A model generated the notes under the pieces. The model was not told where the DNA came from. It ran no database searches and worked only from the letters and a program-made list of their open reading frames with translations. The position numbers and the translations under genes are program-made. A stretch of 64,000 nt of DNA, taken from positions 6,457-70,456 of the forward strand of contig CAZEER010000003.1 in NCBI GenBank assembly GCA_964511215.1. Reading direction: 5' to 3'. Origin of the DNA: an uncultured bacterium. GTDB taxonomy: Bacteria; Fidelibacterota; Marinisomatia; Marinisomatales; UBA1611. This document shows positions 10,711 through 64,000 of the stretch, in pieces (position 1 is the stretch's first letter; each line of letters starts with the position of its first letter).

Positions 10711-10723
10711 AAATAATTCCTAT

Positions 10724-12103: not shown

Positions 12104-12106
12104 AAG

Positions 12107-12988: not shown

Positions 12989-13040
12989 AAAGCTAAAAAT
13001 TAGGTGGTGAATTTATTCTATAATCTTTTCTAAGAAAAAA

Positions 13041-13214: not shown

Positions 13215-13217
13215 ACT

Positions 13218-13364: not shown

Positions 13365-13377
13365 ACGCTAATTATTA

Positions 13378-13485: not shown

Positions 13486-13487
13486 TG

Positions 13488-14801: not shown

Positions 14802-14811
14802 TATTTATTTT

Positions 14812-14825
14812 TTGATTTATATCAA
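14812..14825. promoter_or_regulatory. Perfect FNR/CRP-family consensus box TTGAT-N4-ATCAA
   Basis: The sequence TTGATTTATATCAA reads directly at 14812-14825. It lies in the 142-bp divergent region between the bc-complex operon (ATG at 14801, minus) and ctaA (ATG at 14944, plus). Confidence 0.45.
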
Positions 14826-14943
14826 ACTATTATGAAAAAAATAGTTTTAAATAGGTCCGTAAATTAATCATTTGTATCATTTTCTAAAGTGGAAAAGTTA
14901 TGCATAATGACTAAAATAATATTTTTAACTTATCGGCTCTTAT

Positions 14944-24162: not shown

Positions 24163-24478
24163 ACCATTTGTGAAAAATGAATTAAAAGATGCGATCTTCC
24201 ATTTAATGGATCAAGTTAATTTGTCTTTGGAATCTGAACAAAATGTAGATGACTTCCTTGATAAAACAGATTTATTTGATCGGTGGGAATTATTACTTCC
24301 GGAAGAAGAGTATCCAATTTTTGTTATAGCTGTTTTAAATAATATTAGAAGAAATTCTATTATTGATGTAATTGTAGGTGCAATTATTGATAATTCAAAA
24401 AACAATATGTACGATGTATTACCTAATGTACAAAAAGAAGAATTTCGCTCCCATATTGGAGAGCATCCATTTAGTTAA
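24152..24478 (+). CDS. Hypothetical protein (108 aa), overlaps the HD-GYP gene end by 11 nt
   Basis: Track ORF. No family was recognised. The overlap with the upstream gene suggests translational coupling. Confidence 0.45.
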   Translation: MKNKPFVKNELKDAIFHLMDQVNLSLESEQNVDDFLDKTDLFDRWELLLPEEEYPIFVIAVLNNIRRNSIIDVIVGAIIDNSKNNMYDVLPNVQKEEFRSHIGEHPFS

Positions 24479-31648: not shown

Positions 31649-31650
31649 AT

Positions 31651-33483
31651 TTAGTGAAGTTTTGATAGGCTTCTGTTCCAGATTAAATAAGAACCTATTA
31701 ATGCAGCACCTAATAGCAAGACAGCATTTCCAAAGTTTTTGAAAATTAAGTTCCCTATTCCAAATGTGAATCCATATATCATCAATATACCGGCAATCCA
31801 TTGGAGCAAGAATCCATTACTTACTGGTTGGAGTGTATGTTTAAAGTCTTTTATAACAGGTTTCCACCATCCGCCAGGTTGAACTTTATCATAAAATAAT
31901 TGTAGTTGATCTAATGGCTCGGGCTTTGTCATAAGAGTAGCAGTTATCCATGTTATAACAGCAAGCGGTACAATAATCATTAGCTTATGATGCACCTGTA
32001 GACTGATATTAAATAATACTGGAGCAGATCCAAAAAGTGAATATTCACTCCCATCTGCAATTGTTTGAAAATATGCAATAATTTCTAATGTGCTTGTTAT
32101 GATTATTGATGTACCAAGTGCTGTAATCTCACTCCACGCATTTATACGCCACCAAAACCAACGTAGGATTAGTACTAGGCCTATTCCTGCACCCATTGAA
32201 AAAATAAATTCCCATGCTTTTGAGATACTCTGCATTTTTAATGCAGTAAATGCTGAAAGGATCATAAGAATCACCGTAATGATTTTTCCTACAATAACAT
32301 AATGGTTCTCAGATTCATTAGGTTTAAAAAATCTTTTGTATACATCATTTATAAGGTAAGACGCCCCCCAATTTAAATGAGTATCAATCGTAGACATGAA
32401 GGCTGCAAGAAAAGAAACAATAAGAATTCCTTTAAGACCTGGGCCAAGGAGCGCATTCATGACAAGCGGATACCCTGCTTTCACTCCAAGTTCTGAATAT
32501 GATTCAGGTATTAAAGGGAACATCGTGATTGAGACAACTGCTACGATGATCCATGGCCAAACTCGCAGGGCATAATGTGCAAGATTATACCAAAGAGTGG
32601 CCAATAATGCATGATGCTCATTTTTTGCCGATGACATTCTTTGAATAATATATCCTCCACCATCTGTTCCATGATGACTCCACCACATAATTGTAATAAA
32701 AATTAGAAATTTTGAGAAAGGAGACTCCCAGAAAATTGATGTAGAAATATTTGAATCTGGTATAGGCGGAATAAATTTTAAAGTGTTATCATGTACAATA
32801 CCTGTATCTTGGAGCATCGATAATTTGCTTAGTAATGAGTCCATTCCACCAATATGATTTAGTGCAATTATTGCAAGTGCAATAGAACCAAACATTGCTA
32901 TAAAGAATTGGACAAGGTCAGTTATAACTACACCCCAGAATCCAGATAAAATAGCATATACGAGAGCAATTACAACGCAGATCCATACTGCATTCCATTT
33001 ATCCATATTAAGCATAACGGATACAACTGAAGCCATTGCATTGATCACCCAGCCCATCACAATGAAATTATAAAGAATAGAGAAGTATCCTGCCTTAAAT
33101 GCTCTGAGAAAGGCAGCTGGTTTACCACTATATCTTATTTCTAATAATTCATTGTCCGTCAATACTTCTGCCCGGCGCCATAATCGAGAAAATAGAAAAA
33201 CCCCCAATAATGAACCCATGAGCAAATTCCACCAAAACCAATTCTGCCAAATACCTGATCCGCGGACAAATTCAGTTATGGCAAGAGGAGTATCGGCAGC
33301 GAATGTTGTTGCAACCATAGATGTACCAACAATCCACCATGGAAGTGAACGACCTGAAAGAAAATATTCTTCTGTATTTGAGGCAGCCCTTTTAGAGAAA
33401 TATATCCCAACTCCTAATGAAAAAATTATGTAGGAGATAATTATTGTCCAGTCAATCCAATGAAGTGATACAGATTCAATCAT
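31651..33483 (-). CDS. Sodium:solute symporter (SSS) family transporter
   Basis: 610 aa. LHWIDWTIIISY...EEYFLSGRSLPWW...VATTFAADTPL is the typical SSS N-terminus, with 13 or more TM helices. Confidence 0.88.
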   Translation of the reverse strand: MIESVSLHWIDWTIIISYIIFSLGVGIYFSKRAASNTEEYFLSGRSLPWWIVGTSMVATTFAADTPLAITEFVRGSGIWQNWFWWNLLMGSLLGVFLFSRLWRRAEVLTDNELLEIRYSGKPAAFLRAFKAGYFSILYNFIVMGWVINAMASVVSVMLNMDKWNAVWICVVIALVYAILSGFWGVVITDLVQFFIAMFGSIALAIIALNHIGGMDSLLSKLSMLQDTGIVHDNTLKFIPPIPDSNISTSIFWESPFSKFLIFITIMWWSHHGTDGGGYIIQRMSSAKNEHHALLATLWYNLAHYALRVWPWIIVAVVSITMFPLIPESYSELGVKAGYPLVMNALLGPGLKGILIVSFLAAFMSTIDTHLNWGASYLINDVYKRFFKPNESENHYVIVGKIITVILMILSAFTALKMQSISKAWEFIFSMGAGIGLVLILRWFWWRINAWSEITALGTSIIITSTLEIIAYFQTIADGSEYSLFGSAPVLFNISLQVHHKLMIIVPLAVITWITATLMTKPEPLDQLQLFYDKVQPGGWWKPVIKDFKHTLQPVSNGFLLQWIAGILMIYGFTFGIGNLIFKNFGNAVLLLGAALIGSYLIWNRSLSKLH

Positions 33484-34732
33484 AAAGTTTTTTTAGAGTT
33501 GTAGATAAAAAATAATGTGATAAAATTTTTTTAGTAGATTTATTTTGTAACGCCATTACCAATGCCCCAATCTGGCAGAGACCTACTCCATGCCCCCAGC
33601 CTGCTCCTTTTAACGTTATTGAATCTAAATTATTATTTGTATCCAAATTTGGAATAGTTATAAATGCAGAACTATATAAAAATTTATTATGTAGAACTCT
33701 TCTGATTTCATATTCACTCACAATGATTGCTTTATAAGGTTTAGTATTTTTAATTCCTTCAATCTTTAATTTTATTATTCTTCCAGAAACCCCACGTTTT
33801 AAGGCTTTTATTGATAAAATTGAATCAAATGCAATTCCTAATTTTTTATAGATCATTTCTTTTAATTCAATTATAGAATAAGTGAATTCCCAACGAAAAT
33901 AGTCACCCTTTTTATCTACGACTCCAATATATTTTTTCAAATTGTTATTACTAATGTATTTATTACTGCAATAACATTCAGGATAAGTTTTCATCCAATG
34001 TTCAAGGTCATTAATTTTATTAAAATCTGGTAAATCAATTTTTTCACTATCAGGAATTCCACGCAAATAGGGTTTAGGTTTTTCATCCCAAACGTTTTCA
34101 TTGTTTTCTGATATACCACCACATGATTTTGAATATCGAGTATCACAAATTTTATTATTAAAAATTAAGAATTGGCCACGAGTCATTTCTACTGAAGACT
34201 TAGACGCTTGTGTTAAGTTCTTTATGCCTTGATAACGTTGACAGCAATCATCATTGCATGCATCAATACCAAGAGCAGCATGTTTTTGCTCTGCTGCAGC
34301 TACAATCCATGATCTTGCTGCGATTGTTTGTGCTTTTAGTAATGCGGGTGGACATGCATTGCTCATTTCTGATATAGCGACACACATTAAATACATTTCT
34401 AATTTAATTTCATTCACTACAAATAGAGAATTACTTCTATTTGAGATAAATAAATTACCAGGAACTTGTATAGTAATATTTTTTTCCCAATGAAATCCAC
34501 GTCCAGTAGGAACCGGATGAATCAGAAAATATAAATTATGTGTTGATTGTTTTAGTTTAAAATTTTTTAAGTGCTTATTATTAACGATAAGGTGTGTATC
34601 TGCTGCAGTTATAGAATATTTTTTCTTTTTATTCTGTGTACTTATCTCTAGTGAATTTTGTTTATCACTGGGAAGGACTATGCCAATTGAGATTGTTGGC
34701 TCTTTCTTTGGAATCTCGCCACTTGTTAACAT
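33476..34732 (-). CDS. SpoIID/LytB domain protein (peptidoglycan-cleaving / amidase enhancer family)
   Basis: ISEMSNACPPALLKAQTIAARSW matches the SpoIID core (E....P.EALKAQAVAARTY), followed by DDCCQRYQG and GHGVGLCQIGA. Confidence 0.8.
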   Translation of the reverse strand: MLTSGEIPKKEPTISIGIVLPSDKQNSLEISTQNKKKKYSITAADTHLIVNNKHLKNFKLKQSTHNLYFLIHPVPTGRGFHWEKNITIQVPGNLFISNRSNSLFVVNEIKLEMYLMCVAISEMSNACPPALLKAQTIAARSWIVAAAEQKHAALGIDACNDDCCQRYQGIKNLTQASKSSVEMTRGQFLIFNNKICDTRYSKSCGGISENNENVWDEKPKPYLRGIPDSEKIDLPDFNKINDLEHWMKTYPECYCSNKYISNNNLKKYIGVVDKKGDYFRWEFTYSIIELKEMIYKKLGIAFDSILSIKALKRGVSGRIIKLKIEGIKNTKPYKAIIVSEYEIRRVLHNKFLYSSAFITIPNLDTNNNLDSITLKGAGWGHGVGLCQIGALVMALQNKSTKKILSHYFLSTTLKKLYD

Positions 34733-35664
34733 AATACTTTCCAGGCAGCACCCAATGCTGCCGTCCTTCTATCAGAAGAGAAATCAATAATTAAATCTGT
34801 ACAATTCATAAACATTTTCCCTAATCTGTTATTGTCATTTAATAGAAAATGGCCAAGTCTCTGGCCTATAACTATTTTTTCAATTGATTCATTATTTTTT
34901 TGAAAAAACTTAATTCGGTCATCTACTAGGAATGAAAATGCTTCTAATACATTTTCAACAATATCAAAAAATTGATTTGATCTAGATAGTTCAGACAGCG
35001 TTCTATATTTAGTGTTGTAAGTTAGATTGTACTTTTTGATTATACCTGATGGAGAGAGCCATGATTCTACAGAGTCACCAGATGGAAGAGTTAATTCCCA
35101 CGAACGTTTAGGACTAGAATTATGGTTAAAGTCAATCATTTCACCATTAAGAACTAATCCATCTGCTATTCCTGTTCCGCCACCAATATAGATACCATTA
35201 TTAATATTTTTCATTTTTCCTATAGTTGACTTCCACTCTCCCATAACACAGCAATCTGAATCATTATAAATAGTATTGACAGCATCTAGGCGATTTACCA
35301 TATTGATAATTCTTGGACCATTTGCTAATACTACGATATCATTTTTATTTTTTATTCCTGGAAAACATAATCCAGTTTGATAACCTTGACACTGAGATAA
35401 AGCTTGTTGAATTGTTTCTATAATGATATTCCCTTGAATGATCTCAGAATTTTTGATTGATATTTTTCCAATTTTATATTCATTTCGTTGTATATCTAAT
35501 GCTACTGGTAAAAAGTTTTTATCCCAGCTTGGATGATTAGAGTAAAGAAATTCTTGATAAATTTTACCTGGAGAGATGTTATTGGATTCAGGATCAAAAA
35601 TTGCTGATTGGATAAGTACTTTTGTGGCACCGCAGTCAACACCCACTAAAAGATCATTATTCAT
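34726..35664 (-). CDS. BadF/BadG/BcrA/BcrD-type ATPase, probable N-acetylglucosamine (amino-sugar) kinase
   Basis: The ASKHA phosphate-1 motif VGVDCGATKV lies at the N-terminus, with GGGTGIADG later. It sits between SpoIID and NagZ with overlapping stops and starts. Confidence 0.7.
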   Translation of the reverse strand: MNNDLLVGVDCGATKVLIQSAIFDPESNNISPGKIYQEFLYSNHPSWDKNFLPVALDIQRNEYKIGKISIKNSEIIQGNIIIETIQQALSQCQGYQTGLCFPGIKNKNDIVVLANGPRIINMVNRLDAVNTIYNDSDCCVMGEWKSTIGKMKNINNGIYIGGGTGIADGLVLNGEMIDFNHNSSPKRSWELTLPSGDSVESWLSPSGIIKKYNLTYNTKYRTLSELSRSNQFFDIVENVLEAFSFLVDDRIKFFQKNNESIEKIVIGQRLGHFLLNDNNRLGKMFMNCTDLIIDFSSDRRTAALGAAWKVLC

Positions 35665-39813: not shown

Positions 39814-41175
39814 ATGCTGAATATTATTAATTCAAATATAAAAAATTATATTGTTTTATTTTTTTTCGTTAGTTTATTAACTGCTCAACGTGTTGTGGGA
39901 TACTATCCTTATTGGGTCCAAAATACGCTCTTACCTCAAAATATTGATCTAGTAACATTTACTCATATTAATCACGCTTTTGCATGGCCAGATGCAAATG
40001 GTGAAATAATCGCTCCGAACAATTCATTTTTTGATGTTCTGACATCGAGCTATATCCATGACCTAGATAGGAAATTCATCCTTTCCTTAGGTGGAGGAGG
40101 GCAGGGGCAAGGGTTTGCCACTTCCACCTCAACATATGATATTAGAGCAGTTTTTATTGAGAATATTATTGATAAGCTTATTACCTATGGTTATGATGGG
40201 ATTGATATTGATTGGGAGCATCCTCAATCAACCGAGCAAAGAAATAATCTCACCCAATTTATTCAAGAATTAGATTCCACATTCAATGCCTTTGATCCTG
40301 AGTTATTAATAACCATGGCAGTTCCCATATCAAATTGGTCTGGGCAGTGGTATGATTTTAATAGCCTAAAATTGCATGTGGATTATTTTAATGCGATGAC
40401 GTATGATATCCATGGTGGGTGGAGTACACACGCAGGTCACAATTCCCCTTTATACCAATCTCCACAGGGTGATCCCGATGGGTCAGTCCAGACAGGGATA
40501 AATTATTTAATAAGCAGTGGAATCCCTCAAGAAAAAATAAACATGGGTATACCTTTTTGGGGCAAGCAGTATAATACATCTACAATTAATGGAAATTTTT
40601 CTGGCACTGTTGTTGATCTATATTACAATGAAATTACCCCGCTCATTGGAAATGGATGGGTCTACGAATGGGATAATGTTGCTAAGTGTCCTTATCTTGT
40701 GAAAGATGATCAAACAAAAATTATTACCTATGACAATCCTCTTTCAGTAGAGTATAAATGTAATTATGCAAAACTTAGAAATCTTGGAGGGGTTATGGTA
40801 TGGGCATTAGGTTATGATGAAATAGGTGGAGACGAAACTCTCACAGGGGCAATTAATATGCATTGGTTATCTGCATCGAACCGTGATTCTAAAATTTTAC
40901 CAAATGATGCTAGTCTAGCTGTTTTTCCTAATCCATTTAATCCAGGAACAAAAATAAAGTTCGAATTACATAAAGCTGAAAATATTCGTATTAATATATA
41001 CAATATTAGAGGGGCAATAATCAGGACTGTAGTAAATGACTATTTTAAAGCAGGAATTCACGTAATGAATTATTATCCAGAATCGAATCATGATAATATT
41101 TCTAGTGGTGTTTATTTCTTAGAGTTAGAAACTTCCACAAAAAGGGTAACGAAAAAAATATTATATATAAAATAA
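39814..41175 (+). CDS. GH18 glycosidase (chitinase / endo-beta-N-acetylglucosaminidase-like) with T9SS C-terminal sorting domain
   Basis: It has a signal peptide and the catalytic DGIDIDWE motif (DxxDxDxE). The C-terminus LAVFPNPFNPGTKIKFEL...GVYFLELETSTKRVTKKILYIK is typical of T9SS type A CTDs. Confidence 0.88.
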   Translation: MLNIINSNIKNYIVLFFFVSLLTAQRVVGYYPYWVQNTLLPQNIDLVTFTHINHAFAWPDANGEIIAPNNSFFDVLTSSYIHDLDRKFILSLGGGGQGQGFATSTSTYDIRAVFIENIIDKLITYGYDGIDIDWEHPQSTEQRNNLTQFIQELDSTFNAFDPELLITMAVPISNWSGQWYDFNSLKLHVDYFNAMTYDIHGGWSTHAGHNSPLYQSPQGDPDGSVQTGINYLISSGIPQEKINMGIPFWGKQYNTSTINGNFSGTVVDLYYNEITPLIGNGWVYEWDNVAKCPYLVKDDQTKIITYDNPLSVEYKCNYAKLRNLGGVMVWALGYDEIGGDETLTGAINMHWLSASNRDSKILPNDASLAVFPNPFNPGTKIKFELHKAENIRINIYNIRGAIIRTVVNDYFKAGIHVMNYYPESNHDNISSGVYFLELETSTKRVTKKILYIK

Positions 41176-48461: not shown

Positions 48462-50804
48462 ATGGTTAATAAAAATCTATCCCAAGTAGAATCTTATTTC
48501 ACAGATAATAATAAGATATTAAAACAACTTACAAATATTCCATATCTAGTTGTTGATAATTTTCCAGATTTAGGTTTAATTACATCTCTTCGATTTCTAG
48601 AATGGATCTTAGAAAATCCCCATGGTGTTATTAGTCTTCCGACTGGTAAAACTCCAGAATATTTTATTAAATGGACTCACTATTTTCTAAATAATTGGGA
48701 TGTTGATAATGTAAAATCCATTCGACTGAAATATGGTCTAGACTGTAACAAAAGACCAGACTTATCAAAATTACAATTTGTCCAAATTGATGAGTTTTAT
48801 CCTCTTAACCCTGCGCAGCATAACAGTTTTTATAATTATGTAAGCAAATATTATCTTGAAGGGTTTGGGATTTCCCCTAATAAATCATTATTAATTAATT
48901 CAGATTCTATAAAACTTTATAAAGATAAACATTGGAGTTCAATTTTCCCAGATGGAATCATCGATCTGAATTTGCGTTACAGGGATGCCAAAACTGACGC
49001 TGAAAAAATGCAAAAAGAATCGATCTATATTATAGATCAATGGTGTAATCAATATGAAGAAAAAATAAGGAATATGGGAGGGATTGGGTTTTTTCTAGGC
49101 GGTATTGGTCCAGATGGGCACATTGCTTTTAATATCAGAGGTTCAGATCATAATTCAACAACTCGGTTGATGAAAACGAATTTTGAGACACAGGCCGCAG
49201 CTGCCGTGGATTTGGGAGGGATTGAAATTAGTAAAAATCGTTTGGTTATAACTATTGGGCTGGGAACAATAACTTATAATGAAAATGCTACGGTTATTAT
49301 TATTGCTGCAGGAGAAGCTAAATCAGCTATAGTCAAGGAATCACTTGAATCTCAACAAGATATAAAATATCCTGCAACTGTTCTTCAAAAACTTGAAAAT
49401 AGCAGATTTTATATAACTATAGGTGCATCAAAAATGCTTAAGGATAGTCAAGATCATTATTGGAAAAAAAATCCTTGGAATTCGGAAAAGAAACAGAGAG
49501 CATTATTAAAGCTTTCTAAGAGAAAGAACATTTTTGGTAAAAAACTTCAGTTGCATGATCTACAAAAAGATGAAATTTTTAAAAATATGAATGGGATAAA
49601 TGAAAAAACAGTTGATGAAATTATCCAAAATATTGATAAAAAAGTCCAACAAGGAATCAAGATTGAAAAAGATGAAACATATTATCACACGGGTCCCCAT
49701 CATGATGATATTATGCTTGGGATGATGCCTCACATTATACATTTGATTAGGGAACCAAGTAATAGGCATATTTTTGCAAATATGACTTCTGGATTTACAT
49801 CGGTAACTAATAGTTTTTTAAATAAAGTGATTAAAACTACTTTGGATTTTCTTGAAAAAGGGAAAATTCAGATGATAGACTATCTAGATTTTTTTTCAGA
49901 TGGTTATAAGTTTAAATGGGATAAGGACGTATACCATTACCTTGACAGAATTGCCGATAATGATTTAAGTGGCCAATTGAGAGGTTTATCACATAGGGTT
50001 GTACGCTCAATAGTAAAAATTTATAATGTCCAAAATAAAAACCAATTAATCGAGCAATTAACAAGAGTGGTTAATGAATTAAATGATTATTACGATGGAG
50101 AAAAAAATTCACCAGCAATCCAACGGTTAAAAGGAATGATCCGAGAATTTGAAGAAGAGTTAGTCTGGGCAAACTATGGTGTACGTGTAAAAGATGTACA
50201 TCATCTAAGGCTTGGATTTTATAAGGGTGATATTTTTACAGAACAGCCTCAGCAGAAGAGAGATGTAACACCCATACTAGAACAATTAAGAGAATTTAAA
50301 CCAACTGTTATTTCACTTGCACTTGATCCTGAAGGAAGTGGCCCTGATACACATTACAAGGTTTTGCAGGCTATTGCAGAAGCAGTTCGAAGATGGAACA
50401 AAGATTCTGATTTATCAAATTTAAGAATTTGGGGCTATAGAAACGTTTGGTATAGGTTTGATATGTCAGAGGCAGATTTAATTATTCCTGTGACACTTAA
50501 TTCTATGGCAATTATGAATTCTACTTTTATGAATTGTTATTTGAGTCAAAAAGATGCTTCATTCCCCAGCTATGAGTATGATGGCCCTTTTTCTAAACTC
50601 ACTCAAAAAATATGGGTTGAACAGCACAGAGATTTACAACTGATTTTTGGCCGAGATTATTGGTATCAAAATAAAAATCCACATTTAAGAGCAGTGCATG
50701 GAGCATTATATTTAAAACAATTTGGTGTAGAAGATTTTTTGAAGTTAGCTAGGCGAATTGAGGATTCCACAGAAGGATCAAATATTCTAAAAGAATCATT
50801 TTAA
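48462..50804 (+). CDS. nagB: Long-form glucosamine-6-phosphate deaminase fused to a PIG-L/LmbE-like deacetylase domain
   Basis: The N-terminal half carries LPTGKTPEYF, QIDEFYPL and GIGPDGHIAFN (NagB/6PGL fold). The C-terminal half carries YYHTGPHHDDIMLG, resembling the PIG-L (A/P)HPDDxxxG zinc motif. Confidence 0.82.
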   Translation: MVNKNLSQVESYFTDNNKILKQLTNIPYLVVDNFPDLGLITSLRFLEWILENPHGVISLPTGKTPEYFIKWTHYFLNNWDVDNVKSIRLKYGLDCNKRPDLSKLQFVQIDEFYPLNPAQHNSFYNYVSKYYLEGFGISPNKSLLINSDSIKLYKDKHWSSIFPDGIIDLNLRYRDAKTDAEKMQKESIYIIDQWCNQYEEKIRNMGGIGFFLGGIGPDGHIAFNIRGSDHNSTTRLMKTNFETQAAAAVDLGGIEISKNRLVITIGLGTITYNENATVIIIAAGEAKSAIVKESLESQQDIKYPATVLQKLENSRFYITIGASKMLKDSQDHYWKKNPWNSEKKQRALLKLSKRKNIFGKKLQLHDLQKDEIFKNMNGINEKTVDEIIQNIDKKVQQGIKIEKDETYYHTGPHHDDIMLGMMPHIIHLIREPSNRHIFANMTSGFTSVTNSFLNKVIKTTLDFLEKGKIQMIDYLDFFSDGYKFKWDKDVYHYLDRIADNDLSGQLRGLSHRVVRSIVKIYNVQNKNQLIEQLTRVVNELNDYYDGEKNSPAIQRLKGMIREFEEELVWANYGVRVKDVHHLRLGFYKGDIFTEQPQQKRDVTPILEQLREFKPTVISLALDPEGSGPDTHYKVLQAIAEAVRRWNKDSDLSNLRIWGYRNVWYRFDMSEADLIIPVTLNSMAIMNSTFMNCYLSQKDASFPSYEYDGPFSKLTQKIWVEQHRDLQLIFGRDYWYQNKNPHLRAVHGALYLKQFGVEDFLKLARRIEDSTEGSNILKESF

Positions 50805-52299: not shown

Positions 52300-52794
52300 A
52301 TGAAATATTTATTATTTTTTACTATGTTTAATATGTCTTTATTCGGAACGCATCTGCAAGTGGGTGAACAAGCACCTAATTTTTCTTTAAATGATCAAAA
52401 TGGTAAAAAACACCAATTAGAAGATTACAAAGGTAAAAATTTAGTAATTTATTTTTTCCCAAAAGCTTTCACTCCTGGCTGAACAAAACAAGCGTGCGGG
52501 TTACGTGATGAGTCAATGACATTTAAAGATTTAAATATTTCTATATTGGGTATTAGCTATGATTCTCAAGATCAATTAAAATCCTTTAAAGAAAAATATA
52601 ATCTACCATTTGATTTTTTATCGGATTCAGAAAAACTTATGGGTAGTGATTATGGTGTAAATAGTTTTCACTTTTTTCCACAGCGTAAGACCTTTCTCAT
52701 TGATGAAAAAGGGATTTTAATACATATTTTTAATAATGTCGATTTAAATAGGCATCCTAAAGATATTTTAAAAATATTTAATCACCATGATTAA
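52300..52794 (+). CDS. bcp: Bcp/PrxQ-type peroxiredoxin with in-frame TGA (52480-52482) at the peroxidatic Cys position; predicted selenocysteine
   Basis: Track ORFs 52300..52482 and 52516..52794 are in the same frame. The joined sequence is ...LVIYFFPKAFTPG[TGA]TKQACGLRDESMTFKDLNISILGISYDS..., and the Bcp consensus is FYPKDFTPGCTxExC. The resolving Cys five residues downstream is retained. An N-terminal signal peptide is present. Confidence 0.8.
52493..52505 (+). promoter_or_regulatory. Candidate bSECIS-like hairpin downstream of the peroxiredoxin UGA
   Basis: CGUG-CGGGU-UACG: a 4-bp stem including one G-U pair, with a GGU-containing loop, starting 10 nt after the UGA. The stem is short, so confidence is low. 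Confidence 0.3.
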
Positions 52795-52804
52795 GGAGTA
52801 ATAT

Positions 52805-53029
52805 ATGAAAGTATCTATTGAATATTGCGCAGTTTGAAACTACTTACCGAAAGCTTCCAGTCTGGAGGCTATGTTAAGCGCAACTTTTTCTGATATTGAA
52901 GTAAAACTTGTATCTAGTGGCGGGGGTGTTTTTGAAATAATGCTAGATGACCAATTAATATTTTCAAAAAAATCCTTAAATCGCTTTCCAGAACATGGAG
53001 AAATTGTAGATTTAATAAAAGCAGGATGA
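52805..53029 (+). CDS. SelW/Rdx-family thioredoxin-like protein with in-frame TGA (52835-52837) in a CxxU motif; predicted selenoprotein
   Basis: Absent from the ORF track. My translation is MKVSIEYCAV[TGA]NYLPKASSLEAMLSATFSDIEVKLVSSGGGVFEIMLDDQLIFSKKSLNRFPEHGEIVDLIKAG. The Rdx family begins with (V/I)xIEYCxxC/U, has GGxFEV in the middle and a RFP(E/D) tail. Confidence 0.8.
52853..52869 (+). promoter_or_regulatory. Candidate bSECIS hairpin downstream of the SelW-like UGA
   Basis: GCUUCC-AGUCU-GGAGGC: a 6-bp stem with one G-U pair and a 5-nt loop containing GU, starting 15 nt after the UGA. Confidence 0.45.
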
Positions 53030-53862: not shown

Positions 53863-55146
53863 ATGAGTAAAGATATTAAAAGTGTAATAACCTGTGACAT
53901 TGATGGGAAAGTAGAAACATTTAGCGATGGTGCTGCTGAGCTTTTTGGTTATAATGCAGATGAAGTTATTGGTAAAATGAGAGTTAGTGATTTTAGCGAT
54001 GGTCAGATTGTTCTTGGCCACGTTATTGGTTGGTTAGATGAATCGGTTAAAAAGGGTAAGTGGGAAGGAAATACCACATTTTTACATAAAGATGGTAGTG
54101 AGATACCATGTCGTATCAAAATTACTCCAACTAGAAATAAGGATGGGGAACACATTGGTTATTGTGGTGTCACAACACCACTAAAAGATAAAACACCTGA
54201 TGAAGTTAGACCTAAAATAGATCTCATGACTAAAATATTTACATGGGTCATTATCATGCGCATGCCCTTTTTGTCGGCCACTTTTGTACCTATTTTTGTC
54301 GGAGCTGCAGTTACAAAATTTATGGGATATACAGTTGATTGGGCTTGGCTTGGTCTAACGTTACTTGGTGGTTCTCTTCTGCATATAGGGACCAATACAT
54401 CTAATGATTATTTTGATCATTTGAGTGGTACAGATGAATTAAACTACAACTATAGTAATAAGGGGTTGAATGGTGGAAGTAGGGGTATTCAAATGGGCTT
54501 AATTTCGCCTAAAGGAGTTCTCACAGTTGCTATTATCGCATTTACGCTTAGTGCTATTATCGGCGTTCCACTTATACAGAAAGCGGGTGCACCAATCCTC
54601 TGGCTAGGATTAATTGGATTCTTATCAGGTTTATTTTATACTGCACCACCTTTTCGATTTTCATCCAGAAAAGGAATAGGCGAACTACTTATTGGGTTAA
54701 ATTTTGGTCCTTTAATGGTAGCAGGGAGTGCACTTGTCCAAACGGGTCAGTTTTTACCTGAGGCATTTTTGGCGGGGATACCAATAGGATTTCTTATAGC
54801 TGCTGTTGTATATGTGAATGAGTTTCCTGATCATGATAGTGATAAGGCAACAGGTAAAAATACTTTGATAGTCGTCTTTGGCCCTGAAAAAGCCAGAGCT
54901 GGTTACGTATCTTTGGTTGTGGGTGCATTTTTAAGTATAGTCCTACTAGTGTTAAACGGTACATTCCCATCTATGATTTTAATCACATTATTAGGCTCGT
55001 ATTTTGGAGTAACATCTATTCAAACATTATATAAATATTATAATAATAGACTTCTTGAACCGGCAAATTGGGGAACTATTATAATGCACAGTGCAACAGG
55101 AGCCTTGCTGTTTATAGGGCTCTGGTTGGGAAATTCCTCATTATAA
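53863..55146 (+). CDS. PAS domain fused to a UbiA-family prenyltransferase (MenA-like 1,4-dihydroxy-2-naphthoate prenyltransferase)
   Basis: The N-terminal ~110 aa is PAS-like (ITCDIDGKVETFSDGAAELFGYNADEVIGK...FLHKDGSEIPCRIKITP...GYCGV). It is followed by 8-9 TM helices with TNTSNDYFDHLSGTDE (NDxxD) and a second Asp-rich loop, NEFPDHDSD. Confidence 0.82.
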   Translation: MSKDIKSVITCDIDGKVETFSDGAAELFGYNADEVIGKMRVSDFSDGQIVLGHVIGWLDESVKKGKWEGNTTFLHKDGSEIPCRIKITPTRNKDGEHIGYCGVTTPLKDKTPDEVRPKIDLMTKIFTWVIIMRMPFLSATFVPIFVGAAVTKFMGYTVDWAWLGLTLLGGSLLHIGTNTSNDYFDHLSGTDELNYNYSNKGLNGGSRGIQMGLISPKGVLTVAIIAFTLSAIIGVPLIQKAGAPILWLGLIGFLSGLFYTAPPFRFSSRKGIGELLIGLNFGPLMVAGSALVQTGQFLPEAFLAGIPIGFLIAAVVYVNEFPDHDSDKATGKNTLIVVFGPEKARAGYVSLVVGAFLSIVLLVLNGTFPSMILITLLGSYFGVTSIQTLYKYYNNRLLEPANWGTIIMHSATGALLFIGLWLGNSSL

Positions 55147-55276: not shown

Positions 55277-55429
55277 ATGAAAAATATATTTAAAAAACAA
55301 AATCAAGAAAAAGTATCTGAGGCTGTAATTCGTGCCGTTTCCAGATTAAATAAATATGAAGATCAGAAAGTATCTCATTCAATAGTATGGGATGGTAAAT
55401 CGATTAATTATATATCGCTCACCTCATGA
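55277..55429 (+). CDS. Unlisted 50-aa ORF overlapping the lexA start (ATGA)
   Basis: My translation is MKNIFKKQNQEKVSEAVIRAVSRLNKYEDQKVSHSIVWDGKSINYISLTS. The stop TGA overlaps the lexA ATG. No family was recognised, and it could be non-coding leader. Confidence 0.3.
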   Translation: MKNIFKKQNQEKVSEAVIRAVSRLNKYEDQKVSHSIVWDGKSINYISLTS

Positions 55430-56046
55430 ACAAACATCTGTCACCAAAACTGAAAAAGTTTCTAGATTTTATTAAGCAATTCACGCTAATTCATAGCCAT
55501 CCTCCATCTTACGAGGAAATTATGTCAAATCTAGGATTTGGATCGTTGGGGACAATCAATTGGTATGTAAAAACCCTAGAAGAACAGGGTTACTTATCTC
55601 GTGTAAAAGGTCCCAACGGCAAGCGAGCGCTCATCTTAAGTCAAGAAGAGCATGCTACAACTACAACATCTTGTTTGCCGCTACTGGGACTCATTGCCGC
55701 CGGAGAACCTATTGAAGCATTAGAAAATCCTGAAATGGTTGATGTTCCGCCATCTCTGTTGCATCCGGATAATTATATTTTACAGGTAAGAGGAGATTCT
55801 ATGATTGATGAACAGATTCATGATGGAGATTATATTGTTGCGAGGAAAACACAGACTGCCCGTTCGGGGCAGATTATTGTAGCTCTTATTAATGGAGAGG
55901 CAACTCTAAAGTGTTATATTAAAAAAAATGATGGGGTAGAGCTTCATCCCCGTAACCCAGATTATCCGATTATAAAAATTAATCCACAAGATAATTTTTA
56001 CATTAATGGTGTACTACTCTATTCTTTTCGAAATTATTTGAATTAA
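55426..56046 (+). CDS. lexA: LexA repressor (S24 peptidase)
   Basis: N-terminal winged HTH (PSYEEIMSNLGFGSLGTINWYVKTLEEQGYL), cleavage-site region LIAAGEP, catalytic Ser in VRGDSM, and Lys in ATLKCY. Confidence 0.9.
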   Translation: MNKHLSPKLKKFLDFIKQFTLIHSHPPSYEEIMSNLGFGSLGTINWYVKTLEEQGYLSRVKGPNGKRALILSQEEHATTTTSCLPLLGLIAAGEPIEALENPEMVDVPPSLLHPDNYILQVRGDSMIDEQIHDGDYIVARKTQTARSGQIIVALINGEATLKCYIKKNDGVELHPRNPDYPIIKINPQDNFYINGVLLYSFRNYLN

Positions 56047-56057
56047 GTAAATCTTTT

Positions 56058-57230
56058 ATGACTAGCCAAGACGTTTTGCATATGCGTCTTAATAATATGG
56101 AAATTCAGGCGGAGCGGATTATAGACCCAAGTCTTAAAGCACGTCCGGTTGCTATTATTTCTTCCCATAATTCTAATGGAAGTATTATATCTTTATCTTC
56201 TGAAGCAAAAGAAGAAGGATTACACCGAGGCATGAAAGTTTCATTGGTACGGAAAATGAGTCACAGTACCCAATTATTGCCTTACAATCATTCTCTATAT
56301 GATCGGATTAATTGGTATATATATCGCGTTGTATCTTCTTATACACCTGTTGTTGAACCACATAGATTGAATGAATTTTTTTTGGATATGGGTGGTATGG
56401 ATTCAATTTATGGTAATATAAAAAATGCAGGTCTTGATATTATAAAACGTATAAGAGATGAAATTAGTATTTATGGGACAATTGGTATTAGTAAGAATAA
56501 ATTAGTAAGCCAGATTATAACTGCCGTTATTCCAGATGAAATTCATAAAATTGATAGCGGATATGAATCTCAATTCCTTGAACCTTTAAACCCCAAACTA
56601 CTACCTGTAGTACGTATAAAATCAATTCAATGCATTCTTAAATTTTTATTAATCAAACAAATATCTCATATTCAAATTATGGCAGAGCAATCAGAAGAGT
56701 TTGATATATTATTTGGGATATATGCAAAAGTACTTAGTAAAGAAGCTCAAGGTTATGACACATCACAAGTAAAATCGTATCGTTCACGCAATCACATTTT
56801 AGAACAGAAAATATTACCAGAAGATACAAATGACCAAATGATATTGGATGGAATAGTAAAAGATTTATCAGAACGAGTTTCTTTTAAACTAAGAAAACGT
56901 AAACAGATTGCAGATCGTGTTCAATTAGAGATTCATTATAGCGATGGATATAATATATGCTATAATGGAAAATTTGCAGATATTGATGATATGTCTGTAT
57001 TTATGACTTGTAAAAAACTATTTAAAAATGCGAACCAAAGGCGTAATAGAATACGTTCAATATTGATAGATGTATCAGAATTTCGTCCGTATGCTGATCA
57101 AAAAAATTTATTTTTTACAAAAGAAGGTCATAGTATGAAAGTATCTCGGGCAATAGATAAAATTCGTGCAAAATATGGATTTGACAGTATTCAAACTGCT
57201 AATGTACTTCGAGTGTTAAATCATCAGTAA
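56058..57230 (+). CDS. imuB: ImuB-like Y-family polymerase homologue (catalytic acidic residues apparently replaced)
   Basis: It has a Y-family fold pattern (ARPVAIISS...). Where DinB has LHIDMDAFYASVE, this protein has LHMRLNNMEIQAE, so both Asp are lost, as in ImuB. It sits between lexA and dnaE2. Confidence 0.78.
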   Translation: MTSQDVLHMRLNNMEIQAERIIDPSLKARPVAIISSHNSNGSIISLSSEAKEEGLHRGMKVSLVRKMSHSTQLLPYNHSLYDRINWYIYRVVSSYTPVVEPHRLNEFFLDMGGMDSIYGNIKNAGLDIIKRIRDEISIYGTIGISKNKLVSQIITAVIPDEIHKIDSGYESQFLEPLNPKLLPVVRIKSIQCILKFLLIKQISHIQIMAEQSEEFDILFGIYAKVLSKEAQGYDTSQVKSYRSRNHILEQKILPEDTNDQMILDGIVKDLSERVSFKLRKRKQIADRVQLEIHYSDGYNICYNGKFADIDDMSVFMTCKKLFKNANQRRNRIRSILIDVSEFRPYADQKNLFFTKEGHSMKVSRAIDKIRAKYGFDSIQTANVLRVLNHQ

Positions 57231-60200
57231 TGTTCATTCATTTAAATATTCATTCTATTTATTCTGCAATGCGAGGACTTTTATCTTTACCTGATTTGAT
57301 GAATGCTGCGAAATCGTATGATATGGATACATTAGCTCTTACAGATGTTAATGGTCTGTTTGGTTTTATTCATTTTGTTCAGCATTGTCATGAAGCAGGT
57401 GTCAAAGCTATTGCGGGAGTTAACTTGATGACTATTACAGATGAAGTAATCATATTAGTAGAGAATCAGTATGGTTATGAAAATCTTTGTCGGATTATAT
57501 CCAGTATCCATGATAATTCAGATCAAGATATTTCTGATATTTTAAAAAAATATTCATCAGGCTTATTTATGTTGGCTCATAATAGATCAACGTTAAAAAA
57601 ACTACATTGTTTTATTCCAGATACGCATTTATTTGTAGAGCTGAGACCAGGGCTTTCAGAATTAGAAGCAGAACAATTATCAAAAGAATTAAAATTAGAG
57701 ATTATTGCAACAGGAGATGTGTATTTTAGATCATATGTAGACCATCGATCCCATAAAATTTTACGTGCTATAAAAAATAATACTACAATTGAAAATTGGG
57801 ATATAACAGATTGTAAATCGGAACAGAGTTGGTTCCGCAGTGAAAAGGATATGGCCGTACTTTTCCCAAATAGCTTAGATGCAATCAACAATAGTCGCTA
57901 TTTAGCGGATCGTTGTAAAACAGATTGGTCTTTTGTGAATACTGTTTTTCCAGGTCTATCACTTAAAAATACCTATCATGCTAATAAAAAATTAAAAAAT
58001 AAAGTCTATGCAGGTGCAAAAATCCGTTATGGTGCAATTAATGATTTAATACAATCTCGTATTGAATATGAATTAGAACTGATTACCCAAAAAGGATTTG
58101 CACCTTATTTTCTTATCGTAGAAGACATTATAATACAAACTCAATCGACTATTGGAAGAGGATCGGCTGCTGCATCGATTGTTAGTTATTGTCTTTTTAT
58201 TACTCAAGTAGATCCTATAAAGTACAATCTGAAATTCGAGCGCTTTATTCATACGGAGCGTGAGGGCATGCCTGATATTGATATTGATTTTCCATGGGAT
58301 GAGCGAGATAATATTTTGGATTATGTATTTACTAAATATGGAAAAGACCGAACAGCAATGGTCGCCAGTCAGGTTTTTTTAAAATCTCGTTCTGCAATTC
58401 GGGAAGTTGGAAAAGTGTTCGGCCTCTCTAATGAAGAAATAAAAACAATTACGAAACGTATAGGGTGGTATAATTCTAATCAAGACCTTGAATCTCAAGT
58501 ACAAACAGATCCACGTTTTAGTAATATAGGTTTAGATGAAACATTAATAGAAGTATTAAGAGAAAGTAAAAAAATTATAGGTGTATTACGTCATGTATCT
58601 GTGCATCCTGGAGGAATAGTTATCGTTCCTGATGAGATTAGAAAATATGTACCAGTACTCATGGCACCTAAAGGAGTTCAGATTGTAGAATGGGAAAAAG
58701 ATCAAGTGGAGGATTCAGGTTTATTAAAAATTGACCTTTTAGGGAATAGGAGTTTAGGAGTGGTGCGAGATAGTATACGTTATATTAATCTCAATTATGG
58801 TGAAAATGTGGTTCGTAGTAAATATTTAAATTATCATCAGATTCAACCATTGGATGATCCAAAAACAGAGCATCTCATGAAAGAAGGGAAGACAATGGGT
58901 GTCTTTTATATTGAAAGTCCTGCAACTCGACAGCTTTTGGCAAAAGCGAAGATGGTGGATTTTGAGCATGTGGTAATTTATTCATCTATTATTCGTCCTG
59001 CAGCCAATCGATATACGAATCTGATGCTATCTAGAATACATGGTGCAAAATGGAATTCAATGCATCAGGATTTAGATTTTTTAAATGAAAGCTATGGAAT
59101 TATGGTCTATGAAGAACAGGTTTCGATGGCAGTTATGACGATGGCGGGATTAGGTTATTCAGATGCAGAGTTGCTCAGAAAAACTATGAGCAGAAATTCC
59201 ATGCAGTATCTTGTATCACATTGGGAAAAACAATTCTCTCGTGGCGCACTTCGTAGAGGATATTCATCTAGTTTAATTAATAATGTATGGGATATGATCA
59301 AATCGTTTATAGGATACTCTTTTTGTAAACCACATTCAGCATCGTATGCAATGCTTTCTTTTACCTGCGCATATCTTAAAGCTCATTTCCCTGCCGAATT
59401 TTTATCGTCTGTGATTTCTAACCAAGGTGGTTTCTATTCATCTTATGCGTATATGAGTGAAGCACGTAGGTTGGGTATTCAGATTGTATGTCCAGATATT
59501 AACAACAGTTATTTTGAATGGAGAGGATCAAAAAATAAGATTCAAATGGGATTTATGAGTATTAAAGGATTGCAAAAAAAAACAATAGATTTAATTTTAG
59601 ATGAGCGTAAAGCAGGTTATTTTGATTCACTAAATGATTTTTTATTTCGAGTGGATTTGAATATGACCGATGCAATGGTTTTGACCAATGCAAGTTGTTT
59701 TAACATCATCGCATCAGAATTAAGTCACCAGGAAATAGCATATAAAATTGCTGGTTTTTATTTACAAAGTGGCTCTCGCAGACTATTCAATAGATCTCAT
59801 ATACAATCAAAATTAACAATTGATGAAAAATACAAATTGGAGTTGGATATATTTGGTTATCCGGTATCTATTCATCCCATTACCAAATACAGGCCTATAC
59901 TAAGTTCACGTATTCGATATGCTAGAGATATTCCAAAATATTTTGGCCAATCTATCTACCTTACAGGAATTTATATTACACGTAAAGAATCCATCACTCA
60001 TCAGTCAGAACCTATGCAATTCCTAACTTTAGAAGATGAAACTGATTTATATGAATGTGTTTTATTTCCTGAAGTGTTTAAAAAATTTGGTGATTTATTT
60101 TACTGGGAAACATTATTTATCATCAGAGGAACGGTAGAAAAATCTTTTGGGGTATATAGTATTATTATTGAAAAAATGGGGAGTCTACAACAGTGGGTGC

Positions 60201-60238
60201 ATCGATTAGGTCAAAGTAATTCTTTTAAAATTGTATAA
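57230..60238 (+). CDS. dnaE2: Error-prone DNA polymerase III alpha homologue DnaE2 (ImuC)
   Basis: PHP domain HLNIHSIYSAMRG, the palm-domain DIDIDF aspartates, and GYSFCKPHSASYA. At about 1000 aa its length and context with lexA and imuB match DnaE2. The start overlaps the imuB stop. Confidence 0.9.
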   Translation: MFIHLNIHSIYSAMRGLLSLPDLMNAAKSYDMDTLALTDVNGLFGFIHFVQHCHEAGVKAIAGVNLMTITDEVIILVENQYGYENLCRIISSIHDNSDQDISDILKKYSSGLFMLAHNRSTLKKLHCFIPDTHLFVELRPGLSELEAEQLSKELKLEIIATGDVYFRSYVDHRSHKILRAIKNNTTIENWDITDCKSEQSWFRSEKDMAVLFPNSLDAINNSRYLADRCKTDWSFVNTVFPGLSLKNTYHANKKLKNKVYAGAKIRYGAINDLIQSRIEYELELITQKGFAPYFLIVEDIIIQTQSTIGRGSAAASIVSYCLFITQVDPIKYNLKFERFIHTEREGMPDIDIDFPWDERDNILDYVFTKYGKDRTAMVASQVFLKSRSAIREVGKVFGLSNEEIKTITKRIGWYNSNQDLESQVQTDPRFSNIGLDETLIEVLRESKKIIGVLRHVSVHPGGIVIVPDEIRKYVPVLMAPKGVQIVEWEKDQVEDSGLLKIDLLGNRSLGVVRDSIRYINLNYGENVVRSKYLNYHQIQPLDDPKTEHLMKEGKTMGVFYIESPATRQLLAKAKMVDFEHVVIYSSIIRPAANRYTNLMLSRIHGAKWNSMHQDLDFLNESYGIMVYEEQVSMAVMTMAGLGYSDAELLRKTMSRNSMQYLVSHWEKQFSRGALRRGYSSSLINNVWDMIKSFIGYSFCKPHSASYAMLSFTCAYLKAHFPAEFLSSVISNQGGFYSSYAYMSEARRLGIQIVCPDINNSYFEWRGSKNKIQMGFMSIKGLQKKTIDLILDERKAGYFDSLNDFLFRVDLNMTDAMVLTNASCFNIIASELSHQEIAYKIAGFYLQSGSRRLFNRSHIQSKLTIDEKYKLELDIFGYPVSIHPITKYRPILSSRIRYARDIPKYFGQSIYLTGIYITRKESITHQSEPMQFLTLEDETDLYECVLFPEVFKKFGDLFYWETLFIIRGTVEKSFGVYSIIIEKMGSLQQWVHRLGQSNSFKIV

Positions 60239-62090: not shown

Positions 62091-64000
62091 TTATTTCAAA
62101 AAAGTCATTTTCTTTATATCCCGAAATTGTTTGCCTGCACTTATTTCGTAAAAATAAATACCAGTCGTCACTTGCTCTCCATATTGGTTCTCACCATTCC
62201 ATTCAAATTCATAATTCCCGGCTTCGAGCTTTTCATTACGATATTCATAAATACGTTGCCCAAGTATATTATAGATATTTATTTGTACATCCATATTGGC
62301 AATAATTCCAAAAGTAAATGAAGTGGTAGGGTTAAATGGATTTGGAAAATTATTACTCAAGAAAAATTCATTTGGGATAGTACCAGAATCTATTCCAGCC
62401 AAAGGAATACAAATTGAATCAGGGTTAAAGTCTTCCACGGGCATTGGAGGGTCAGGTTGCCAGTGGTCCATGGGAAAAGTGTAATCTCTCCACCAGCAGT
62501 CATTGTTTGCATTTGCGTGATGATATCTTGCTCGAGATCCTCCAAAACCAAATCCTCCACCTTCTTCAACATATGCAAGCTCAGATACATCATAGAAACC
62601 CCAGGTATAGATCATATGCCAGGGAAAGGGACCAATAAATGTAGGAGCCGCAGAGTAAGTACCATCACCATTAGCCGTTGCCCACATTTTATGATCACCT
62701 CCACCGAGACCTTGTAATAATTTTAGCCAATGATCTTTTAATGATAGATAAACAGAATCCTCCGCAGGATTAAAACCAAGTGAATCTGCTCCTGTCATAT
62801 CTACATTGAAGGTCAATGTAATTGATTGTCCGCTAGGTACTACACCTCCTGCAGGTAAATCATAATATCCGGCTAAAGGTAGCTCCAAGAGCCCAGTATC
62901 ATCTTCTATACCAAGCTCAAAAACTCTATTACCTCCGCCATATTGGGGGGAATTTTCCCAACCTATGTAATCAGGTGGGTCACCATAAGTTATACTTAAG
63001 TATTCCACTGATGTTGAATCAAGGTGCATATAATATTTATATTCAATTGGAGCGGTTGGGAACCCACTTATACTGACAGCGATACTAAATAAATTTGTTC
63101 CCGGAGTACGGGTCATTTCACAATCGGCAGGATCATCACAATCCCATCCATTAAAACCACCCCGCAATTGCATTTGATCGCCTCTAGAAAGGCTAAATAC
63201 TGGCATTCCGGATGCACCTTCTTCATCGAGCCATTCGGTCATGTCAACTGAGAAAATCACGGTTTTGGTAATTGGATCACCTTGATATGGAATAGTAATA
63301 TTAGTAGATCCTGTGATAGAACCATCATCCTCAATAGTAAACTCCTGATTAGGCTCTCCAATAATATTTAATAACCAGTTACCATACCCATCGCTACCAT
63401 CACATATATCACATGTGGTACCATTGCCATTATCGGTATCAATTGCACCCCATTCATAAGAATTTGGTCCAATTACGTTTTCTAATACAGTTGTCCAAAT
63501 TAAATCACCTGCTGTTTCATCGCCATTAGTACCATCATCATACCCTTGTACCACAGCCCAATTTGTCATAGTACCTTTGAATCTTATATCTTGGAACCCA
63601 TTACCTTCATCGGTAAGAGTAAGGATTACTGTTGAATATACAATGTCATCATTTGTGGGAGGTTCATTATTAAAATATGCCCAGGCCAGTGTGGTATCTA
63701 CTGAGCTTGTGAATACTCTATTATTGATACTTTCCCAACCGCCGAGTCCATGCTGGAATTTATAGGAAATAACTGTACCACCTTCCGGATCAAAAGAAAA
63801 ACTTCCAGACCAAAACTCAGAATCATCTTCTTGAGTCAGTGGTTCCCCTTCCCAGCTATTCATGTATCCAGCAATATACATAGTGTCCCCGTCGTACCCA
63901 AGGATACCAGCAGTGCTTACTCGAAAAAAGACATCGATACTATCCGTTTCAGTAAAAGGAGGTGATGTACCATTTTCCCAGTAATCATATGCAAGAAATG
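62091..64000 (-). CDS. Secreted multi-domain protein with repeated CBM-like beta-sandwich modules and T9SS C-terminal sorting domain; N-terminus beyond window end
   Basis: The track begins at M (63881), but my translation stays open upstream to 64000 (...FLAYDYWENGTSPPFTETDSIDVFFRVSTAGILGYDGDTMYIAGYMNSWEG). It has recurrent (V/I)x(F/L)xGxxxxW modules. The C-terminus is NNFPNPFNPTTSFTF...GIYFYEISAGKQFRDIKKMTFLK. Confidence 0.8.
   Translation of the reverse strand, partial: FLAYDYWENGTSPPFTETDSIDVFFRVSTAGILGYDGDTMYIAGYMNSWEGEPLTQEDDSEFWSGSFSFDPEGGTVISYKFQHGLGGWESINNRVFTSSVDTTLAWAYFNNEPPTNDDIVYSTVILTLTDEGNGFQDIRFKGTMTNWAVVQGYDDGTNGDETAGDLIWTTVLENVIGPNSYEWGAIDTDNGNGTTCDICDGSDGYGNWLLNIIGEPNQEFTIEDDGSITGSTNITIPYQGDPITKTVIFSVDMTEWLDEEGASGMPVFSLSRGDQMQLRGGFNGWDCDDPADCEMTRTPGTNLFSIAVSISGFPTAPIEYKYYMHLDSTSVEYLSITYGDPPDYIGWENSPQYGGGNRVFELGIEDDTGLLELPLAGYYDLPAGGVVPSGQSITLTFNVDMTGADSLGFNPAEDSVYLSLKDHWLKLLQGLGGGDHKMWATANGDGTYSAAPTFIGPFPWHMIYTWGFYDVSELAYVEEGGGFGFGGSRARYHHANANNDCWWRDYTFPMDHWQPDPPMPVEDFNPDSICIPLAGIDSGTIPNEFFLSNNFPNPFNPTTSFTFGIIANMDVQINIYNILGQRIYEYRNEKLEAGNYEFEWNGENQYGEQVTTGIYFYEISAGKQFRDIKKMTFLK

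Follow-up and report, generated by a model that had tools for sequence, protein, structure and literature searches.

We examined a two-gene locus within a stretch of 64,000 nucleotides (hereafter, the window) of contig CAZEER010000003.1, from the genome assembly GCA_964511215.1 of an uncultured marine bacterium of the Marinimicrobia (SAR406). The first gene (52300..52794) codes for a predicted selenocysteine (Sec)-containing peroxiredoxin (Prx) of the Bcp/PrxQ type, and lies on the + strand, as do all the other features of the locus described below. It is complete and comprises 164 codons, including the putative Sec61, in a single frame closed by the stop codon TAA at 52792-52794. The frame is divided into two open reading frames (ORFs), one of 60 aa (52300..52482) and one of 92 aa (52516..52794); between them stand a single TGA (52480-52482) and 11 sense codons, an arrangement described in an earlier note drawn from the bare sequence and whose coordinates we confirmed; neither frameshifts nor stops other than the TGA occur in the frame. 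The second gene (52805..53029) begins 10 nt beyond the stop codon of the first and codes for a SelW-like/Rdx family protein of 74 aa, which carries an in-frame TGA of its own.

Family membership of the joined 164-aa product was assessed with Cys put in place of the Sec/stop for profile scoring. The product aligned with positions 1-123 of the 124 positions of the Pfam AhpC-TSA profile (E = 1.7e-37), and its best solved relative was Sulfolobus Bcp1 (PDB 3DRN, E = 4.5e-30, residues 19-158). Among the NCBIfam models, the best match was the Bcp thioredoxin-dependent thiol peroxidase model NF006960 (134.8 bits, aligned over 3-154 of 156 positions). The TGA lies in the context FFPKAFTPG-[TGA]-TKQACGLRD, which corresponds to the peroxidatic Cys of the PxxxTxxC signature; the same column holds the Cys of TPGCTKQACG in 56 Cys-form loci and, in 3DRN, the active-site position, so that the earlier proposal of a TGA placed exactly on the catalytic Cys holds, as does that of a resolving Cys retained at +5 (Cys66, TGC codon at 52495..52497), which is flanked by the equally invariant A65 and G67 and whose codon falls inside the stem of the hairpin described below. 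In an alignment of 19 sequences, T58, P59, G60, U61, and R129 were invariant and P54 nearly so. Thr58 of the TxxU active-site motif is encoded at 52471..52473 and Arg129 at 52684..52686, the latter being the conserved active-site Arg of peroxiredoxins, whose catalytic role we assume from general knowledge of the Prx family.

A protein search of a collection of 5.8 billion proteins retrieved 573 relatives, and a genome scan was conducted with one genome per species, the following counts covering the best 80 loci. Codon 61 is TGA in 23 of these and TGT or TGC in 56, the remaining locus being unmatched by the motif used for reading the codon. The TGA loci belong to Neomarinimicrobiota/Marinimicrobia (12), other marine metagenome-assembled genomes (MAGs; seven), Fidelibacterota (one), Candidatus Poribacteria (two), and a MAG labelled as Winogradskyella (one), whereas the TGY forms were found in Ignavibacteria, Clostridia, and others. 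Comparison of this codon across relatives had been proposed as a check on the first prediction. Every one of the 26 Sec-form orthologs sampled has TGA at the exact position; they come from three phylum-level groups and extend down to approximately 45% protein identity, and the flanking TPG and xKQACG are conserved around the Sec/Cys column.

Three further observations concern the distribution of the family. The Sec-Prx on contig CAXRJK010000026.1 of the Winogradskyella MAG differs hardly at all from the one in Marinimicrobia UBA2986, and judging by this resemblance the contig is probably mis-binned. The Sec-form Bcps outside Marinimicrobia (two loci in Candidatus Poribacteria and one in Fidelibacterota) have no adjoining Rdx gene, and represent either independent Cys-to-Sec conversions or transfer. 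Finally, a sister group at approximately 55% identity, found on marine metagenome contigs and neighboured by HxlR and MaoC genes, carries TP-P-C in place of TP-G-U together with an N-terminal hydrophobic extension; it is a Cys-form paralog or ortholog from a marine lineage.

Starting 10 nt past the TGA, a minihelix of 5 bp with the loop CGGGU, resembling a Sec insertion sequence (SECIS) element, can be drawn in the Prx gene (52492..52506). Nearly all orthologs have a minihelix at a distance of 10-13 nt from the UGA, with loops GGUCU, GGGUU, or GUU; it overlaps with the stretch that encodes the conserved peptide KQACG(L/F)RD. The mean minimum free energy of the region +10..+33 was -5.83 kcal/mol in Sec forms vs -2.73 kcal/mol in Cys forms (Mann-Whitney p = 1.8e-6). 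The codons that build the stem are biased in Sec forms, Arg being encoded by CGY/CGG in 26 of 26 sequences and Phe by TTC in 16 of 16, against genomic backgrounds of approximately 34% and 20% respectively, while at the equivalent positions of Cys-form genes Arg is AGA/AGG in 18 of 32 and Phe is TTT in 22 of 30. The rest of the same genes shows no such bias (Phe TTC:TTT, 16:0 in the hairpin vs 78:241 elsewhere, Fisher p = 5.5e-10; Arg CGY/CGG:other, 26:0 vs 21:68, Fisher p = 2.9e-13), and therefore the bias is position-specific and does not reflect a codon preference linked to expression level. This pattern of synonymous codon choice points to the maintenance of the minihelix by selection at these very positions. 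A single consensus structure was considered for the element and rejected, orthologs using at least two pairing registers.

The second gene had escaped the earlier note, which treated the Prx alone. Its translation, MKVSIEYCAV-[TGA]-NYLPKASSLE..., contains the motif C8-A-V-U11, the TGA at 52835..52837 encoding the predicted Sec11 of a CxxU motif. The product covers positions 1-73 of the 74 of the Pfam family Rdx (PF10262, E = 6e-22, 78 bits vs a cutoff of 22.6), and passes both NF041051, 'SelT/SelW/SelH family (seleno)protein' (102.4 vs 88 bits), and TIGR02174 (71.9 vs 34.2 bits). A Sec-form Rdx gene directly follows the Sec-Prx in 19 loci, with TGA at the equivalent codon in all of them. The Shine-Dalgarno sequence AAGGAG of the Rdx gene (52793..52798), located 6 nt before its ATG at 52805, overlaps the Prx stop codon, which argues for co-transcription and coupled translation of the two genes; no terminator-like site was found between them. 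A SECIS-like hairpin of 8 bp (AGCUUCCA-GUC-UGGAGGCU) occupies 52852..52870, starting 14 nt after the UGA, and is stronger than that of the Prx gene (-12 kcal/mol). Across the aligned loci, 92.9% of the cells are paired in this hairpin, vs 25-55% when the partner is slid; three pairs are changed on both sides, as many being reached in only 6 of 500 shuffles, and the Ser codon pair TCC-AGT that builds the stem is fixed in 15-16 of 17 sequences.

The Prx also carries an N-terminal hydrophobic extension, MKYLLFFTMFNMSLFGT (52300..52350), which is absent from cytoplasmic Bcps and is probably an export signal or anchor; the alignments with 3DRN and the NCBIfam Bcp model begin only at residue 18-19. 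Its layout, charge followed by hydrophobic residues, is that of export signals, and a Met-Lys/Arg followed by 10-13 hydrophobic residues is kept in the Sec-form orthologs of all lineages with differing sequence. The extension is also present in the Cys forms of the FCB group (Fidelibacterota and Ignavibacteria), several of which end in a lipobox-like ...AC|GGN, while the Clostridia forms lack it and start directly at the mature core. The signal peptide initially assigned to this protein is supported in so far as the hydrophobic segment is real and conserved among relatives, but no clear AxA site is recognizable, and Met9 and Met12 are possible alternative starts in the window. The hydrophobic signal suggests that the Sec-Prx works outside the cytoplasm, and the protein may belong to an exported subgroup of Bcp, a context that would be modestly new. 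The Rdx protein has no N-terminal extension, and for this reason the Prx, if exported, and the Rdx protein would not be direct redox partners.

We consider that the gene at 52300..52794 encodes a genuine Sec-peroxiredoxin, in which the in-frame TGA specifies the catalytic Sec, with a probability of roughly 0.88. Several results weigh against this reading. In the window, the hairpin has little stability (-2.6 to -4.3 kcal/mol), and the region around it is no more stable than shuffled sequence (z = +1.3 to +1.7). Part of the original description stood, a hairpin being present 10 nt after the UGA, and the orthologs show selection on it; the window hairpin by itself is not beyond chance and owes its significance solely to the relatives. 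No difference in stability between Sec and Cys forms was found in the larger regions +10..+42 and +4..+60, and tests for covariation in either of two fixed registers gave no significant result, as the pairing differs among Leu-type, Phe-type, and Phe+CGG orthologs. Moreover, the orthologs are phylogenetically related, and the p-values given for the Prx hairpin overstate their independence. The covariance-model search advocated in the earlier note did not favour the prediction either: no Rfam SECIS family was matched in the whole window at the gathering threshold or in 52400-53000 at E <= 10, these searches returning just two chance snoRNA-like matches. The Prx product also scores below the curated equivalog cutoff of NF006960 (134.8 vs 140 bits), a narrow shortfall that speaks against its being a strict equivalog and not against membership of the Bcp/PrxQ subfamily. 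As for the Sec-decoding machinery, ARAGORN was run on the window and on 26 related loci and detected no tRNA-Sec, Pfam scans of virtually all ORFs of the 64 kb revealed no SelA, SelB, or SelD, and a scan of 1.33 Mb of related loci for SelA/SelD signature motifs gave chance tetrapeptide matches only. In three SAR406 single-cell genomes, SelD was found and classed as 'orphan SelD', no other selenium-trait or selenoprotein genes being detected in them (Peng et al. 2016, PMC5029168).

The alternative that best withstands these data is that the UGA is read by a near-cognate or suppressor tRNA (Cys, Trp, or Arg), giving a full-length protein without selenium. Such read-through would accommodate the lack of Sec machinery in the window and the related loci scanned, the failure to find SelA and SelB in the SAR406 single-cell genomes (PMC5029168), and the small, weak Prx hairpin. 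Nevertheless, an efficient enzyme with Cys is only one substitution (TGA to TGY) away, and yet TGA has been kept across lineages in which synonymous sites are saturated (dS of 0.8-3 or saturated over the codons downstream of the TGA). Read-through likewise leaves aside the position-specific selection on the hairpin and the second TGA at the redox Cys of a family with a curated '(seleno)protein' model. The presence of SelD in the phylum (PMC5029168) runs counter to it as well and supports selenium use in the phylum. On balance we regard read-through without selenium as improbable, and insertion of Sec at codon 61 as much the better account of the conserved TGA.

Far less probable are the explanations in which no continuous protein is made. 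A pseudogene, or a strain-specific nonsense mutation, would leave a Prx cut at 60 residues with the rest decaying, as might be supposed from the two ORFs of 60 and 92 aa that standard gene callers report. The comparison refutes it: the 26 orthologs, spread over three phylum-level groups, all have the TGA at an identical position, the product spans the full Pfam profile with no frameshifts or extra stops, and purifying selection acts on the sequence 3' of the TGA, dN/dS (the ratio of nonsynonymous to synonymous substitution rates) against the window being 0.09-0.35 over the 62 codons after the TGA where dS was estimable. A split gene, in which residues 1-60 and 73-164 are made separately and assemble into one fold, finds a starting point in the ATG at 52516 with which the second ORF opens. 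This ATG occurs in no other ortholog, however, and in 11 of 24 orthologs the first 30 codons past the TGA include no ATG, GTG, or TTG; no Shine-Dalgarno sequence precedes 52516, and the invariant KQACG.RD, with the resolving Cys in it, is encoded by the 11 codons that separate the TGA from the ATG. Because of the low dN/dS and the absence of a conserved restart codon, both the pseudogene and the split gene can be discarded with near certainty, and the initial argument that a random nonsense mutation would not fall on this codon is sustained by the same evidence together with the conservation of the TGA.

The TGA is not a sequencing error either, since four independent assemblies (one from ENA, two from JGI samples, and one from a Logan run) that are 99.7-99.9% identical over the locus share the same split into 60 and 92 aa. 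An alternative code in which TGA means Trp or Gly (code 4 or 25), as the reading TPGWxKQAC in about 100 public protein clusters would have it, is excluded for the window because TGA terminates 10 of its 45 long ORFs and table 11 yields a dense, coherent gene map, and it is further contradicted by the codon under the 'W', which is TGA and not TGG, and by the finding that only two in-frame TGA candidates with coding potential exist in the 64 kb, those of the Prx and Rdx genes, both at catalytic redox Cys columns. A Trp at the peroxidatic position would, besides, inactivate a peroxiredoxin. No further selenoprotein candidates with in-frame TGA were detected in the window or in the Marinimicrobia flanks.

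The Trp reading has a wider consequence. About 100 of the top 120 clusters display TPG-W-xKQAC, and inspection of the DNA revealed the W to be a TGA on short contigs that had been called under genetic code 4. The adjacent Rdx is likewise translated with Trp at the Sec codon in public clusters, and longer contigs yield two fragments. This constitutes a systematic annotation artefact for marine selenoproteins, which appear either as fragments or with a catalytic Trp, and which in this state corrupt family alignments and functional inference.

Taken together, these data make the region 52300-53029 of this marine Marinimicrobia (SAR406) genome most probably an operon of two genes, both of which code for selenoproteins. 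The first would specify an atypical 2-Cys peroxiredoxin of the Bcp/PrxQ type with a UGA-encoded Sec in place of the peroxidatic Cys (T-P-G-U). We infer that the hairpin located 10-13 nt past the UGA recruits SelB with Sec-tRNA(Sec), such that Sec is inserted and termination does not occur. The Prx selenolate would then reduce peroxide and become a selenenic acid, which Cys66 would resolve into an intramolecular selenenylsulfide to be recycled by a presumably thioredoxin-like reductant, while the N-terminal hydrophobic signal may place the enzyme outside the cytoplasm. The second gene would provide a SelW-like/Rdx protein, whose redox motif is CxxU and whose Sec would be decoded with the aid of a stronger hairpin of the gene's own. 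If the Prx is exported, the question arises of which periplasmic reductant recycles the selenenylsulfide.

More tentatively, as a proposal somewhat likelier to fail than to hold, the exported Sec-Bcp (periplasmic or in the outer leaflet) and the cytoplasmic SelW-like protein could together make up a selenium-dependent module for antioxidant defence, conserved, co-transcribed, and specific to aerobic SAR406. SAR406 is among the most abundant clades of the dark ocean. Should the module be real, much of the Prx and SelW selenoprotein signal of the Global Ocean Sampling (GOS) and TARA data would come from this phylum, and the 'orphan SelD' of SAR406 (Peng et al. 2016) would be seen to serve a Sec-decoding trait.

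Elsewhere, the window carries genes for aerobic respiration, for the recycling of peptidoglycan, and for glycoside hydrolases, along with a LexA/ImuB/DnaE2 cassette. The genes for aerobic respiration form a large cluster (1095-17850) that includes COX1/COX3/COX4, a 999-aa multihaem cytochrome c, a split cytochrome b with a Rieske protein, CtaA, CtaB, two SCO1-like proteins, and DUF420, from which it follows that the organism respires oxygen, in keeping with a need for peroxide defence. At 55426-60238, a LexA repressor, a Y-family polymerase (IMS/ImuB-like), and a DnaE2-like error-prone polymerase stand in a row, in what looks like an SOS mutagenesis cassette. An unusual sensor-enzyme fusion, of a PAS sensor domain with a UbiA-family prenyltransferase, is encoded at 53863-55146. 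The 780-aa protein encoded at 48462-50804 has weak, sub-threshold matches to glucosamine-6-phosphate isomerase and PIG-L deacetylase, and its neighbours are genes for peptidoglycan and amino-sugar recycling (AmiA-like, NamZ, NlpC/P60, and GH3). A 1526-aa protein (17870-22450) joins an N-terminal AMP-binding (adenylating) domain to a C-terminal GNAT acetyltransferase, with about 800 residues between them lacking a Pfam match. Type IX secretion sorting domains (Por_Secre_tail and CHU_C) are found on a GH18 enzyme and another protein (39814-41175 and 62091-63881). An assignment to Bacteroidota, which these domains would suggest, was rejected, since the genome scan puts the organism in Neomarinimicrobiota. 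Finally, no Pfam family was matched at E <= 0.001 by the ORFs 13488-14801 (437 aa), 30530-31801 (423 aa), 34726-35664 (312 aa), 4319-4804 (161 aa), and 24152-24478 (108 aa).

Compared with Bcp/PrxQ proteins of the Escherichia coli type (NF006960, 3DRN), the Prx of the window aligns end to end and shares the fold, the PK..TPG[C/U]T.QACG.RD motif, the resolving Cys at +5, and the conserved Arg; it differs in having Sec for the peroxidatic Cys, an N-terminal hydrophobic segment of about 17 residues, and a score under the model cutoff. PrxU of Eubacterium acidaminophilum is another bacterial Sec-containing peroxiredoxin. The corresponding model (NF040737, peroxi_PrxU) matches the Prx of the window only weakly, at 51.8 bits vs a cutoff of 270, and represents a different Prx subfamily.

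With regard to the decoding signal, the experimentally defined SECIS of E. coli fdhF is likewise a hairpin within the coding sequence 3' of the UGA, its upper stem-loop being offset by 11 nt, vs 10 nt in the Prx gene, and its apical loop reading AGGUCU, vs GGUCU in Leu-type Prx orthologs. The fdhF element possesses an extended lower stem and reaches approximately -16 kcal/mol over 40 nt, whereas the Prx element is a minihelix of 5-6 bp with -3 to -11 kcal/mol and varied registers. The upper stem-loop of fdhF alone is sufficient when located 11 nt from the UGA. An fdhF-like lower stem was also contemplated for the Prx element and dropped, the wider folding windows showing no difference between Sec and Cys forms. 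The Rdx of the window is, for its part, a regular member of the SelW-like/Rdx family (PF10262, TIGR02174, NF041051), with an N-terminal CxxU and a hairpin whose loop opens with G.

The biochemistry itself is not new, given that Sec-peroxiredoxins and SelW-like proteins rank among the most abundant selenoproteins recorded from the sea, and the novelty implied by the earlier note was in this respect overrated. According to two metagenomic surveys, TxxU Sec-Prx has been a catalogued marine family since 2005: in the Sargasso Sea, SelW-like proteins (CxxU, 48 genes) and Prx (COG1225, TxxU, 43 genes) were the top two selenoprotein families (Zhang, Fomenko & Gladyshev 2005, PMC1088965), and the GOS data yielded 427 SelW-like and 253 Prx selenoproteins (Zhang & Gladyshev 2008, PMC2398784), SelW-like being the most abundant marine family in both. 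In sequenced genomes, 12 Sec-Prx and five independent Cys-to-Sec conversions were reported (Zhang et al. 2006, PMC1794560). The metagenomic Sec-Prx (COG1225/pfam00578) resemble the Prx of the window in family, TxxU motif, peroxidatic Sec, and marine origin. Furthermore, ten GOS reads with neighbouring Prx and SelW selenoprotein genes were reported to form a small phylogenetic group, with no organism assigned (PMC2398784), and this is very probably the same gene pair as that of the window.

What distinguishes the present locus is its context: the Sargasso and GOS studies dealt with short reads and named no organism, whereas the pair described here lies on a 64-kb contig of Marinimicrobia/SAR406, with outliers in Fidelibacterota and Poribacteria, and is described together with an export-like N-terminal signal and codon-level support for the hairpin. 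In the literature searched, no paper linking Marinimicrobia, Marinisomatota, or SAR406 to selenoproteins was found apart from the table of orphan SelD (PMC5029168), and the assignment of the Prx/SelW pair to SAR406 may therefore be new, if modestly so. Tying this previously anonymous pair to SAR406 would imply that the clade decodes Sec and needs selenium for peroxide defence, and would offer an explanation for its reported 'orphan' SelD.

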